Source: Eledone cirrhosa
Lineage: Eukaryota
Assembly: GCA_964016885.1 (NCBI GenBank)
Contig: OZ024744.1
Location: forward strand, 36,766,001-36,830,000
Direction: 5' to 3'
DNA: 64,000 bases
Part shown: positions 3,567 through 45,600 of the stretch, piece after piece
Position numbering within the stretch: position 1 is the stretch's first letter
Layout of the letters: each line of letters opens with the position of its first letter
Program-made: the position numbers and the translations under genes
Notes under the pieces: generated by a model
The model's input: the letters and a program-made list of their open reading frames with translations, nothing else
What the model was told of the DNA's origin: nothing
Databases searched by the model: none

Positions 3567-5384
3567 ATGGAGGTCCAGCAACTAGGAGAAAAATCTGCAA
3601 ATGGCTTGCGTAAGCTCATGCAGCGCTCGCGTAATGGAGAGATAGCATGCTTTCCAACAGACAAGTCTGGCAGAATGTCGGTTAACAGCCTGCCAAACTA
3701 CATCCAGGCAATGCAACCCCACATCACTAACACAAGAGAGGTAACACCACAGGAGCATGAGGATAGAGAAAAAGCCCTCAATGCCCATATGGTGATGTGG
3801 ACGAATATAATGCAGCCCAACAAAAGGACTGCCAACAACTTCCAGGCCTGGAACAATGACGTGCCGGCGTTGTATGGGCTTCGAAAAGACCATAAAACGG
3901 GCAGTGACGCTGTCACGGGACCACCAACACGGCCAGTCTGTGGAGCTAACATTGCTAGTAACTACAGACTGTCCTACTTCCTCTCCCTGATCATACGCCC
4001 CATCATTGAAATGTCCCCAGATGTATGTGACAGCACGGAGGACCTCCTCAGCAGAATCGGCGAGAGTAACCGATCTAGGGACAAAACAAACTGCATAATA
4101 GGTAGTATGGATGATGTGTCCCTGTATCCATCTATTGACGTGGATTTTGCTGTGGAGAAATGCGTAGAAATGATCAGCGATAGCAATGTTGAGTTCTGTG
4201 GGATTGATACCAGTGAGCTGGGACTCCTACTTAAACTTACCTATAGTAATAATTACCTAGACACATATGACCTTAGCAACCTGTGCCCTACAAGACCAGC
4301 AAGAGGCAGACCACCTACCATTACCTCAATGGCCAAGAAAACCCACACAGATAGATGAAACGGGTGGACCAGAGCCATACGGACACCCGAAAACCACGAT
4401 GAACTGAAGAAAATGATTGCACATGCGGTAGGGGCCAGCATAAAACTAAACCTTAAGGAACATATGTTCAAATTTAATGGAAAAACATATGCCCAAGAGG
4501 AAGGAGCAGCTATTGGTGTTAGCATTGTAGGAGACATAGCTAACTTATTCATGGTATGGTGGGACAGTAGACTTAAACTTAAACTTAAAGAACAATTAGA
4601 AGACCCCTTAACCCTAATAATGTACTGCCGCTACGTTGATGATATAAACATCGTAGTTAAGACATCCCCACTAGAGAACAGTCAGGAACTAGAGAAAAAC
4701 ACAATGGAAAGCATCCAGCAAATAGCTAACTCCATCCACCAGAGTATTAAAGTTACTATAGACTACCCAAGTAAACACCCCAACCATCGATTACCCGTAC
4801 TAGACACAGAGCTCTGGTTAGATACCATTAATAACAAAAAACAAATCCTCCATTCCCATTATGCCAAACCCATGACTTCCAAACATCTGATCCACCGAAA
4901 CTCGGCTGTTTCGGACCATACCAAAATCAACATACTGATTGCGGATTTGGTACGGATGATGAGAAACGTGTCCCGCATGTGCAACCCCGAAGAACTAGAG
5001 AGACACATACAACACTTCATCCACCATATGCAGTTCTCTGGTTACAATCAGAGAGATAAAATCAGAGTGTATAGAGGAGCCAGAACCAAATGGGAAAAAA
5101 TGGTAAATAATGACACAAATGGGACCTGCCCCTTGTATAGGAGCAAATTTTGGAATAGAATAGAAAGAACTAGGAATAAGGCTAATAGAATAAACTCATG
5201 GTATGATAGCAATAAATACCAGAGTGTAATGTTCATCGATACAACCCCTAGAGGTGAATTAGCTTACACATTTAGAAGGGCCCTAGATAAACATAAACTC
5301 AATATTAAGATAGTAGAAAGACCAGGTACCTCCGTAAAAAGACTTATTAGCAAGACATACCCTTTTCAAAGACCCCCTGTATAG
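3567..5384 (+). pseudogene. PLE-1 reverse transcriptase (one in-frame TGA at 4356-4358)
   Basis: TDKSGR, LYGLRKDHK...TRPVC, SMDDVSLYPSID (motif A), YAQEEGAAIG..IANLFM (motif B), RYVDD (motif C), LPVLDTEL, YAKP..S..IH..S thumb. Confidence 0.9.
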
Positions 5385-5760
5385 ATAAGAAATGTATAAC
5401 CTGTAAAATAAGCCCCATATTAACTGTAAAACTAGAAATGTAGTGTATAGCAAAAGATGTACTGAAGGACAATGTAGAGACAAAAATATAGTGTACATAG
5501 GTAAGACAGCTCATAGTGTAGGGGAACGGATAAATGAACACTGTCGAGACCTTCAAGATAGTAAAGAATCATATGTACTCTACCAACATGCTAAAATAGA
5601 ACATAAGGGTAAATTAGAGAACATAGAAATAAAAATAGAATCTACACACAGAAAAGACGCAATGTTTAGACAAATCACAGAGGCAATAAACATAAAAGAA
5701 TTACAACCAAAATTAAATAGAAAATATGAGTGGAACAGCAACATCACAACTTACAAATAA
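5375..5760 (+). pseudogene. PLE-1 Cys linker plus GIY-YIG endonuclease
   Basis: Frameshifted C-x4-C-x2-C linker, then NVVY..C...C....VYIGKT....ERINEH...H....H...RQITEA..I....PKLN. Confidence 0.85.
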
Positions 5761-5961
5761 GGACAAAATGAAAACACACACACATATAGAACAAACAACC
5801 AACCGGTAACTTGTAAATAAACAAATAAATAAACGAATATAAACACACACAGACACCCGGATGTGGCGCATGCGCAGACTGAGCACACAACACACACAGA
5901 GAAACAAAATGGCGTAGGACAGAACAAAGGAGAGGCACAAAAACAAAGAAAAAAATCCCCG

Positions 5962-6004
5962 GTCACTGAAGAGGTCACAGAATGTGTGACGAAAGAACTT
6001 TGAC
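5962..6004 (+). ncRNA. Minimal type I hammerhead ribozyme at the PLE-1 3' end
   Basis: Stem I GUCA/UGAC, core CUGAAGA, stem II GUCACA/UGUGAC (one extra G), GAAA, very short stem III, CUU triplet. Confidence 0.7.
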
Positions 6005-6187
6005 AATATATAAACAACCATCTGGTTGTGGAACGAACCAACCAACCAGAAATTTATAAATTTATAAATTCCTAAATTTATAAATTTATTATAATAAATT
6101 GAAGTGAAAGCAACTGGTGCGTGTGTTTCTTATTGGCAACAAGACCCTCCCAAAGTATAACAACAACACAGTATATTATTAAATATC

Positions 6188-41102: not shown

Positions 41103-41524
41103 GTGTGTGTGTATGTGTGTGTGTTATGCAAATGTATAGTTGAGCAAGCGACCAATACTTGGAAAGTGGTAATTACAAAGCAATTAGGTGTCTATATCTA
41201 ATGTGAAATCTAGCGAATATCATTGATAGTATATTATTACTTGTCAGTATGTTTTAATTGCTCTCCGAAACAGTGAGAGTGAACGCCTTCTGTTGTGGCA
41301 TGGAATAGAGTAGAGTAGAGCGAGAGAGACACAGAGTGGTAGGTGTTGGAGTCGGACGGAAGATAGACTGAAGTGGTGTTAAGTAGAGAAATCAATACAC
41401 TTTTACCATTACACATGCCTGTCAATATACAGAGGGTTTCTTTTGTGATTATTACTTTTCAGAAACGGACTATAGCAGTGTCTAGTATAGCCGCTAGTGA
41501 TGGAAAATATAACTATATAGAACT

Positions 41525-41535
41525 ATATATATAGG

Positions 41536-41633
<98 letters not shown>

Positions 41634-41681
41634 CACACACATACACACACATATATATATGTATATATCTAAATATGTATG

Positions 41682-41726
<45 letters not shown>

Positions 41727-41730
41727 ATAC

Positions 41731-41810
<80 letters not shown>

Positions 41811-41850
41811 GTATATATGTATACATATATGTATAAGTATATATATATAT
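41525..41850. repeat. (TA)n degenerate microsatellite
   Basis: Direct observation. Confidence 0.95.
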
Positions 41851-42064
41851 ACACAATACAAGGAAATAAACAAGCAAATATACCCACATATATCCCTGAA
41901 TTTGAGTAGTGCCAACCTTAACCGTTGTTGCTCTAGGAAAAATAGGGACAAAATAATCTGAAAGGATTAGATGGATTCAATATCAGAGCTATATAATATA
42001 TTATAAAGAAAGAAGAAACATTAGATATAAATAAAAAGATATAATATACCTAAATTCCTTCATT

Positions 42065-42158
42065 GTCCTCGACTACGTAGTTTCGTGGCTATTATGCAAA
42101 AACATTACATCATAGATATGCAGTATTTTTGTGAGGTTTGTCGACTTATCAAGAGGAT
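42065..42158 (-). ncRNA. Type I HHR, U3-A8 variant (left arm, stem II mismatch)
   Basis: Reverse complement reads AUCCUC UUGAUAA GUCG...CCAC GAAA CUACGUAG UC GAGGAC. Confidence 0.65.
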
Positions 42159-42499
42159 ACCTCATTTAGAGTTTCAAAACACGTCCGTAGGACGCGATAT
42201 GGAATCCCGAAGGGCGGTGGGGGAACTTATCACGTGATACAGCGGTCAAGAAACAGAGCTAAACCACTGAAGTATAGTGACTGCTGTTAAGCTTACCATA
42301 CTCACACTTCTCGCTCTCCTAGTCAACTCTTCTACGGCCTTGACATAAATACCCCCTCCACCTTTTGTGGTATTTTTCTCTTGGTTGTAAGAGGTTTAGC
42401 TCTGTTTCTTGAAGGCTGTATCACGTGATAAGTTCCCCCACCGCCTTTCGGGATTCTATCGCGCGTCCTACGGACGTGTTTTGCAACTCTAAATGAGGT

Positions 42500-42594
42500 A
42501 TCCTCTTGATAAGTCGGCAAACCTCACAAAAATACTGCATCTCTATGATGTAATGTTTTTTGCATAATAGCGACGAAACTACGTAGTCGAGGAT
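42500..42594 (+). ncRNA. Type I HHR, U3-A8 variant (right arm, all stems intact)
   Basis: Stem I AUCCUC/GAGGAU, core UUGAUAA, stem II GUCG/CGAC, GAAA, palindromic stem III CUACGUAG, GUC triplet. Confidence 0.82.
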
Positions 42595-42671
42595 TATGAA
42601 TGAATTTAGGTATATTATATATTTTTATTTATATCTAATGTTTCTTCTTTCTTTATAATCTATATATATAT

Positions 42672-45600
42672 AATGTCACCTACTCTCAATGATGTCAATT
42701 ACTATCAATGAAAAACCACTGCTTTCTTCCCTCACATCACCACCACAGTCATGCTGTAGTCAAAAGAGCTTTAAAAATATCTATGGAGCTGTATGCACCC
42801 CCACTTCACAAACTAGAAACCCCAGAATATACCGCTACTCACTACGTCAGAGGCTACGCACACGTAGTGATTGCATATTTACCCATTTACTAGACGCTCT
42901 AACACTGCCAGCCAACACCAAAGCATGCTGCTCACACACATAAGTCGGAGTCCCAAAATCTGCCGATATTCACAACATGAGAGACTATGTCTGCTGACTG
43001 ACTGTCCCTTCACTCATCTACCTGGGCACAACGCACGAACAGAAAAGGGGCTCCATGCCAACACACAAACCACAATACAGCCACCCCCTGCTGCAGTAAT
43101 TCTGCTCCAGTCTTCTCACAAAGACACGATTACAATAAAAACAACAACAAAAGTAATGCTGCTCCAGTGTTTTCACAAAGACACAAATACAACAACAACA
43201 ACAACAACAACAACAAAAGAGGGAACTGCAACCCTATCCAATGGTGTAACCACAAATCCAATCAAAATCTTCTCCCTGAACAAGAACATTTTTCTTTTTT
43301 AAACCATGAACCTGGCAAAAGAGATATAGAAAAATATTTTAGCCATCACCCAACATCATCTTGCTGTCACTAATACACAATCTCAAAACAAGCCCCTTGC
43401 TACAGTCACAACCAGCCACCACACTAGCCTCCAGATATTTACTCAATACACAAGGTATCAGCCCATCCATCAATGTACAGAAATGAAAGATTCAATTCAT
43501 TGAGGATTGGGTTGGTAACCATCCATTTCACATCTTCTTAATTCTTACTGAGACCCACCTTGACAACTCTCACTTGGAGGTCGAAGTAAGAGTGAGGAAT
43601 TTCACAACCATCCGCACGGATCGTGCTGGCAGAAGGAAGGGTGAAACTCCCATTTTCCTGCATGATTCCTTTACAGCAGATGGTAAGACAACATTCTCCA
43701 ATGGCTACTGTGAATCAGTCACTGTGCACAACAAAGCCAATGATCTGATGTTAGTTGGACTCTATAGGCCACCTCAAACACCCATAATCTGCTTCAAAGA
43801 ATGCTTTAAATGCATTAAATGCTTTATTCAACAGTGCCATTCTAGTAACATACTTTTGATGGGAGACTTTAATCTACCCTGTGTCGATTGGTCTACAAGC
43901 AGTTTGAAACCAGACACTCCAACCTCAGCCACTGACAAAGAAGCAGTCGAGTCACTTCTTGACTTCATGAATGAGTTTTTCTTGTCTCAACTTGTCCTTG
44001 CACCAACAAGGCATAAGAAGAACATTCTGGATCTAGTGTTTAGTAACCACACTAACACTAAACATAATAATACAGTGGAAAAAACCCTTCTCTCAGACCA
44101 TGACATGGTTCTTTGTAACCTGAGATTCTACCAGCCGAAAGCTAATCCTAGGGACCTCTTTCCAGCCCTCCCATTCGATACTACAATGCCAACTGGGATG
44201 CAATTATGAACGAACTATCACATGTTGACAGGTCTTTTACACACGCACACATTTCCACCAACATCAAAACATCTTGGCAGATCTTTGTAGACACTGTGAC
44301 AAATATATGTACAAAACACACCCCACCAAAACATGTGAACCAAACTAAGTGCAGTATCCCCCAAAACAGAAAAAAAATTATCAGAAAAATAAAAAGAATA
44401 AACAAAAAAATTAACACACTAAAATACTGCCAACAGCAACACAAACATTCGACGGCTATCACCCTGCTTGAATCAAAAAGATATAAACTCCAACAATGCA
44501 TGAAGACCATCATCAATAACCAGAGAACAAGTGAAGAAATGTGGGCCATTGAGAAAGCAAACTCAACCCCAAAAGTGTTCTTCTCATTCGCTAAAAAACA
44601 CAAGGTCACTGTCTCCACTGTTGGCCCTCTAGTTGATGAAAATACCACACACCAAGATAATGCCAAAACCATGGGCGAGATACTGCAGAAACAATACTCT
44701 GTTTTCAGCAATCCTGATATGGCCGATCTGGGCTGTATAAGTGATGTTAATCCCCAGCACACTATATCAGACATAACGTTTGGCGCCCTTGATGTCTTAA
44801 CGGCAATAAACGAAATTAAACACAATTCAGCAATAGGCCCCAACAGGTTCCCTGCTTGTGTCCTGAAGGTGTGTCGACACCAACTTGCATCTCCTCTTGC
44901 TAATCTGTGGAGGAACTCACTGGACACTGGCTATATTCCTGAAAACTTTCTGTCCAAATCCGTTTTCCCAGTCTTCAAAAAGGCAAATAAGTCCTTTGCA
45001 GTGAACTACCGTCCGATCTCACTCACCTCTCATATTATCAAGGTATTTGAGAGGGTGTTGAGATCACCAATAACTCACTTTCTTGAAAGCAACGGCCTGC
45101 TGAACTCCAACCAACATGGGTTCTGTAATAGAAGGGACTTCCTAACGCAGCTCCTGCATCATTTTGACGATGTTTCAGAGCCTTGGGAGAGGGCTCTAAC
45201 ACTGATGTCATCTACCCTGATTTCAGCAAGGCCTTCGACAGGGTTGATCATAAGATTCTACTGAAAAAACTATCCAATATTGGTGTCTCTGGAAAGTTAC
45301 TACAGTGGATCAAATATTTCCTGACAGACAGATCCCAACATGTTGTAGTCGAAGGAGTAAAATCAAGCCCTGCCAAAGTCAGTAGTGGCGTCCTGCAAGG
45401 CACTGTGTTGGGCCCACTTCTTTTCATCATCTACATTAATGACATTACTGACATCACCAACGCAGCAATATAAGAATTTTCGCAGATGATTCCAAGCTCC
45501 AAAGGGTCATCAATGAGGTGGGTGACCGGACTTGTCTTCAGTCAGACCTACTGGCTGTTATCCAATGGGCAGAAAAGAATAATAAGCTGCTGAATGAGAA

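Follow-up and report, generated by a model that had tools for sequence, protein, structure and literature searches.

A large retrozyme family with a predicted U3-A8 hammerhead, probably mobilized by Penelope-type retrotransposons, behind a decayed foldback in Eledone cirrhosa

What kind of element leaves an inverted repeat that carries a hammerhead-like motif in each arm? The question is raised by a foldback in the window, the 64,000-nt stretch of Eledone cirrhosa DNA analyzed here, which an earlier note had described as ORF-less and placed at 42000..42659. The answer that we consider probable is a non-LTR retrozyme with a predicted U3-A8 hammerhead, mobilized in trans by Penelope-like elements (PLEs), the window holding one decayed head-to-head insertion of it. 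Direct support for the retrozyme reading comes from a tandem unit with no ORF, a fixed core, a covarying fold, the 3′ ends, (TA)n sequence, and inversions.

At the window locus, a protein-free repeat of ~590 nt has inserted once, head-to-head, and has since decayed. The foldback is real, its inverted arms (41990-42268 and 42390-42670) being identical at 263 of 279 aligned bases, but the insertion is larger than first drawn, ~41856-42672, and asymmetric (Table 1). The longest stop-free frame across 41856-42672 is 68 codons, which agrees with the ORF-less description. The minus-strand piece includes the ribozyme and extends to the distal of the family's fixed 3′ ends, where (TA)n takes over; the plus-strand piece has the proximal one, some 70-84 nt beyond C17, and stops in a short TA run. 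Both pieces belong to subfamily A of the three described below and are ~93% identical to another copy; unlike the array copies of the unit, the locus itself is not tandem. Two runs from one sample contain the family, and in them both private bases of the window copy are minority letters; these runs are silent on expression.

Table 1. Features of the foldback locus, in window coordinates
Feature	Position	Strand	Remarks
(TA)n-rich microsatellite at left end; likely target site	41507..41855	.	99/111 fixed 3′ ends abut (TA)n
Unit piece, inverted, 5′-truncated	41856..42268	-	93.8% identical to natural dimer over 42268-41866; left end approximate
Type I hammerhead, left arm	42066..42158	-	Core 42152-42146; C17 at 42071; stem II broken by G-to-A at 42141
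Head-to-head junction, ~4-nt microhomology AACC	42262..42265	.	Junction sequence and arm alignment
Unit piece, direct, 5′-truncated	42262..42672	+	92.7% identical to natural dimer over 42262-42671
UGAGGU, 5′ strand in a predicted 6-bp pseudoknot with loop II	42494..42499	+	95.1% of cells paired
Type I hammerhead, right arm	42500..42594	+	Stem I, U3-A8 core, stem II, GAAA, palindromic stem III, predicted cut after 42588
ACCUCA, predicted 3′ strand of pseudoknot, stem II internal loop	42521..42526	+	
Hairpin extending stem II, 13 pairs, G-U tolerant	42527..42563	+	95.8% of cells paired

The core UUGAUAA is read in both arms, as had been claimed, on the plus strand at 42506-42512 (right) and on the minus strand at 42152-42146 (left); since one sequence gave rise to both arms, the U3-A8 variant has been observed here once and not twice. 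The right arm has the perfect 6-bp stem I (ATCCTC at 42500-42505 with GAGGAT at 42589-42594), the palindromic stem III, and the GUC that the earlier note had listed. GAAA occupies 42575-42578 and is followed by CUACGUAG, with cleavage predicted after C 42588 (C17). Stem II, GUCG...CGAC around a 54-nt insert, is present as well, but its "perfect" pairing reflects a private C-to-G at 42572 and not the family form: GCCAC stands at the CGAC site in 35 of the 36 closest copies, and GCGAC in 2 of 199 copies. In the left arm, stem II fails to form in a constrained fold (G-to-A at 42141). A hammerhead descriptor accepting C3-G8 or U3-A8 matches the right arm, with 0 matches in 150 shuffles of the 64-kb window, and misses the left arm because its stem II is damaged. 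Rfam searches of the locus gave no hammerhead match at E values up to 10 in one run and up to 5 in another, which the long stem II insert and the variant core may explain. With UUGAUAA, GAAA, and GUC, the right arm fits the core pattern YUGANRA/GAAA/UH with a Watson-Crick 3-8 pair; the earlier reading of the motif as a hammerhead carrying the U3-A8 variant holds at sequence level, and the predicted ribozyme is of type I. The descriptor has a second match in the window at 33386-33307 (minus strand), with a canonical CUGAGGA core, a 7-bp stem I, and a longer stem III; it sits in a different repeat, common to several loci.

We consider the window copy probably dead. Stem II is altered in both arms, and the ribozymes lie on opposite strands, facing away from each other. 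Activity at this locus is also made unlikely by the plus-strand fold of the whole foldback, which puts the ribozyme in one long duplex, and by the inability of its two motifs to dimerize within one RNA.

With the right arm as query, a genome search returned 1,659 candidates; among the 40 scored, full-length matches were 93-96% identical. When the loci were mapped on a natural 1.5-mer, every piece fell on a closed unit of ~590 nt, and six-frame translation of this 1.5-mer gave no ORF. The tandem period is 581-607 nt, with one hammerhead per unit (49 distinct natural cut-to-cut monomers), and arrays of up to 5 units were seen, again ORF-less. The 15-mer covering stem III and GUC has 8,071 exact matches in the genome, while the reversed control has 0. 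There are three subfamilies, A, B, and C, which are 75-83% identical to each other. Subfamily B, ~75% identical to A, has a period of 593 nt, copies that are 98-99% identical, and arrays of five; C is intermediate between A and B. Many units are 98-100% identical. On these sequence features, we classify the unit as a new, large non-LTR retrozyme family with a predicted ribozyme. A search of the literature outside subscription journals found no paper on a ~590-nt family of this kind or on a U3-A8 retrozyme. Some family copies have deletions inside stem II (L138/L139, L145/L146, L147, and L061/L062); since such deletions are found in at least two units of the same insertion, these variants were copied at least once. 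Relatives with a short stem II and the same stem III were considered as a possible parent and rejected, their 2 and 11 matches reading as deletion derivatives of the family or as chance.

The core is nearly invariant within the family. UUGAUAA was found in 196 of 199 copies, a count that includes overlapping and related copies, and C3-G8 in none; the three exceptions are one U3-G8, one C3-A8, and one A3. Of 83 copies chosen by their 3′ half only, 75 had a readable core, which was UUGAUAA in 73 cases; the other 8 were cut short or could not be read. All 24 aligned copies have U3-A8, and the canonical core in family context had 0 matches in the genome. Given these counts, the consensus is not a CUGAUGA core that has decayed at random. 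The same invariance removes any covariation signal from the 3-8 pair in the family, so the selection argument that had been built on covariation at this pair is lost. Across families the pair does vary, with four U3-A8 and two C3-G8 motif types found beside GIY-YIG genes (45 loci). In a PLE family represented by L101, L103, L109, L116, L124, L130, and L135, a U3-A8 hammerhead-like motif reads GCAA for GAAA (A13C) in 7/7 loci, which would be unusual if the motif is active.

Nor is the variant rare among Penelope hammerheads, although the earlier note had called it rare. The U3-A8 core is described in PLE hammerheads, with ~1,300 matches in S. mansoni (PMC4209133, Cervera and de la Pena 2014), where opposite-strand pairs in Penelope hammerheads were already published as well, and the natural variant, earlier in vitro activity, and pseudoknots are treated in PMC3088659 (Perreault et al. 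2011). The warning that CUGANGA pattern searches miss it was justified: such screens would pass over hammerheads by the thousand in the E. cirrhosa genome, the four U3-A8 motif types beside GIY-YIG genes among them. The core variant being known, the added value lies in the family and a testable mechanism and not in the window locus.

Selection on the hammerhead fold is nevertheless real, as judged from stem I, the predicted pseudoknot, and subfamily conservation, and not from the 3-8 pair. In the family form of stem II, GU(C)GGC pairs with GCCAC and leaves a single base bulged (166 of 199 copies, with 11 more differing only at the bulged base), and stems I, II, and III are paired in 97.5%, 96.7%, and 100% of cells, respectively, in 24 aligned copies. 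Pair 2 of stem I is U-A in 174 copies, U-G in 10, C-G in 12, and C-A in 0 (n = 199). The predicted pseudoknot pairs UGAGGU, just 5′ of stem I, with ACCUCA/G in loop II, and its outer pair is U-A in 72 copies, U-G in 120, C-G in 4 (three loci), C-A in 0, and other in 3 (n = 199). In the hairpin extending stem II, 8 of the 13 pairs show one-sided variation, and no pair varies on both sides. The covariation score of the 24 aligned copies exceeded all 500 shuffles and all slid controls; the signal is carried by two lineage events, one in stem I and one at the pseudoknot outer pair, and the number of pairs with double changes (two) was not above shuffles (204/500).

Between subfamilies A and B, 3 of 41 ribozyme columns changed, compared with 134 of 536 other columns (P = 0.005), although 14 of the 41 are fixed by how the monomers were cut out and the three differences are an end-gap artifact according to a second comparison. 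Ribozyme columns were also less changed than the rest between A and C (P = 0.04) and between B and C (P = 0.008). Catalytic positions are all kept across lineages differing by 25%. Folded as circles, the sense strands of 7 of 8 monomers gave z scores of -3.6 to -8.7 (15-25 shuffles each), and the remaining one folded no better than shuffles (z = -0.8); antisense strands gave +0.8 to -2.9.

How the unit moves is suggested by its insertion ends, at loci taken from family searches and not at random. Of 125 3′ ends, 111 lie in two zones, one ~80 nt and the other ~245 nt beyond the cut, and (TA)n adjoins 99 of these 111; target-site duplications are unreadable inside (TA)n. An inverted unit is joined at 124 of 190 5′ ends, and opposite-strand pairs are head-to-head in 43/43 cases, as in the window. 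The foldback is a routine insertion shape of the family, and one that would bury the ribozyme in a duplex. Insertions of EN+ PLEs are described with a tail, an inverted 5′ copy, and a microsatellite bias (PMC8557442, PMC3846280), and the tail has been tied to two internal reverse transcription (RT) starts (PMC11167929). The gap between the family's 3′ ends is 165 nt, versus the 30-40-nt tails described for PLEs. From the two 3′ ends, the inverted 5′ copies, and the (TA)n targets we infer mobilization in trans, the unit likely being copied by Penelope-type retrotransposons; the earlier linking of the foldback to PLEs gains support from these footprints. PLE mobilization of animal retrozymes has so far been argued from co-occurrence and pLTR similarity (PMC7229834; bioRxiv 10.64898/2026.07.22.740005). 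This family displays PLE-type footprints directly and is large and young enough to be tested with purified PLE protein.

The template is less clear. Units within an insertion differ by a mean of 3.0 per 300 nt, versus 9.0 between insertions (76 units), which fits a circular template but equally a homogeneous multimer. A divergent unit, 7-20 nt from its neighbors, occurs in 6 of 23 multi-unit insertions, and a private variant is common to the units in only 6 of 23, so a single circular template is not proven; we regard the evidence for circles as suggestive only.

A BLAST search with the arm, which had been proposed as a route to the parent PLE, led to the closed tandem unit and to no ORF-bearing parent. 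Neither six-frame translation nor tblastn detected an RT or GIY-YIG ORF in the unit, and 25 + 20 GIY-YIG loci (45 of 10,597 candidates) had only simple-repeat sequence in common with it. Autonomous elements with RT, GIY-YIG, and long ORFs are present in the genome, and U3-A8 is used by such elements too. A candidate partner, L118:2809-5622 (minus strand), is an open frame of 938 aa that encodes RT and GIY-YIG; the repeats flanking it carry a U3-A8 hammerhead and show two apparent 3′ ends that run into (TA)n. On C1, an inverted pair of 9 kb was rejected as the parent, being a nest of other PLE pieces that contains a retrozyme copy. At L214-L215 (G000:C1:403746500-403758500), a 3.5-kb inverted duplication with 96% identity surrounds nested PLE pieces, and each arm contains a retrozyme foldback and another U3-A8 motif.

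Other retroelement pieces lie in the window itself. The segments 3870-4934 (plus strand) and 5212-6163 are likely PLE remnants; here a PLE protein matched weakly in tblastn, and the GIY-YIG locus L102 matched at 91%. A broken LINE at 43487-45473 (plus strand) has an apurinic endonuclease domain followed by RT-like frames, and a broken non-LTR retrotransposon with an RT match lies at 37903-34180 (minus strand) and resembles R4/Dong. The repeats flanking the insertion are reminiscent of octopus genomes; in passages of an octopus repeat annotation, recently active PLEs are listed and ribozymes go unmentioned.

Traces of cleavage in vivo were sought at the 5′ ends. About 5 of 190 ends, a biased sample, lie within 3 nt of the cut, and a gap search placed 3 of 37 TA-flanked events at +1, counted by eye among the first 100 of 377 matches; no sharp peak at the cut was found in these 190 ends and 37 events. 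An apparent excess at +1 (19 matches, ~16 events, versus 5 at a control offset) was rejected because the control was unfair, being blind to TA-flanked ends and using a stricter prefix than the +1 search. The 37 TA-flanked events fall 31 just after the cut and 6 just before it (P = 2e-4, by eye), a hint that is confounded because RT stalling at a structure could also give such a step.

Three other explanations deserve weighing. The unit could be the pseudo-LTR of an unsampled autonomous PLE, and the foldback a 5′-truncated PLE insertion that stops short of the ORF. Every insertion feature of the unit is a PLE feature, opposite-strand hammerhead pairs 100-700 bp apart are described as truncated PLEs in PMC4209133, and the GIY-YIG candidates examined are a small part of the total. 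We nonetheless consider it unlikely, given that the sequence upstream of the unit in mapped loci is another unit, an inverted unit, or flank, that the ORF-less arrays run to five units, and that tblastn with one PLE protein matched only 3 family loci, in two of which the match falls outside the unit as judged from coordinates alone. A MITE or foldback DNA transposon whose terminal inverted repeats happen to hold a hammerhead would resemble the window locus in its 280-bp inverted arms around a short ORF-less spacer. In the family, however, inversion points are spread across the whole unit, the arms end at different positions within it, many copies lack an inversion, and tandem arrays are frequent; neither fixed terminal inverted repeats nor a fixed length was found among the mapped copies, and such an origin is very improbable.

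The ribozyme might also be one in form only, the unit being a structured, PLE-dependent SINE-like element that keeps its hammerhead fold as a signal for protein binding or for the start of RT, with cleavage in vivo rare or absent. Poor in vitro cleavage is described for PLE hammerheads (PMC4209133), cleavage mutants left PLE insertion in vitro unaffected (PMC11167929), 8 of 9 Xenopus retrozyme dimers stayed uncleaved (bioRxiv 10.64898/2026.07.22.740005), and the insertions in E. cirrhosa run through the cut site with no sharp 5′-end peak there. Set against this are the retention of every catalytic position in such diverged lineages, the U3-A8 core, which retains the 3-8 pair and is reported active (PMC3088659), and the confounded step in 5′ ends after the cut. 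We judge it quite improbable.

Under the preferred reading, a non-LTR retrozyme moved by PLEs, tandem source copies would be transcribed and unit-length RNA would be released by the hammerheads, which probably act as dimers joined by the palindromic stem III, with help from the loop II pseudoknot. Circular or multimeric RNA would then be reverse transcribed by a PLE protein nicking (TA)n, with RT beginning at either of the two internal sites past the cut, and the inverted 5′ piece may arise from priming at the other end of the break. More tentatively, we speculate that the family is very young and perhaps still mobile, that its U3-A8 hammerhead is activated by the loop II pseudoknot, and that it is copied by PLE-type internal RT on circular RNA while having no sequence in common with a PLE. 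If true, both the identity of the enzyme that moves animal retrozymes and ribozyme cutting in vivo could be tested directly in this family.

Among known systems, the metazoan non-LTR retrozymes, defined with PLEs proposed as their drivers (PMC7229834, Cervera and de la Pena 2020), are close relatives in kind. As described there and in Li et al. 2026 (bioRxiv 10.64898/2026.07.22.740005), which supports the PLE role by co-occurrence and pLTR trees, they are likewise non-coding tandem repeats with one type I hammerhead per unit, a GC content under 45%, and thousands of copies, co-occurring with PLEs. The ~590-nt unit exceeds the 170-400 nt of the former report and falls within the 51-972 nt of the latter. 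Our family, described from DNA, differs in that its core is U3-A8, its stem II is bulged and carries an extension of 50 nt, and a predicted pseudoknot stands where loop-loop contacts are usual. It also has no pLTR homologue in the 45 GIY-YIG loci; a transposable element homologue is reported for 24 of 57 Xenopus retrozyme families (bioRxiv 10.64898/2026.07.22.740005). Cleavage of hammerheads as dimers is reviewed in PMC6765202. Pseudoknotted hammerheads are known (PMC3088659), but the pseudoknot here is a prediction in a eukaryotic repeat, and its strands, 5′ of stem I and in the stem II internal loop, are placed unlike those described.

The PLE hammerheads of PMC4209133, of low activity, share with the family the U3-A8 core, a short palindromic stem III, opposite-strand pairs 100-700 bp apart, and the stem II bulge, as in D. 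virilis Penelope. The family hammerhead differs in lying in a closed tandem unit and not in an ORF-flanking pLTR, and in its 5-6-bp stem I, 3-bp stem III, and long stem II insert. Putatively non-autonomous PLEs of Chlamydomonas are described with head-to-tail copies, but they have 3′ sequence in common with their partner. The unit has no RT or GIY-YIG, unlike EN+ PLEs, and its tail is ~165 nt and not 30-40; with these elements (PMC8557442, PMC3846280, PMC11167929) it shares partial tandems, a head-to-head inverted 5′-truncated copy, an optional tail from two 3′ ends, and microsatellite targets.
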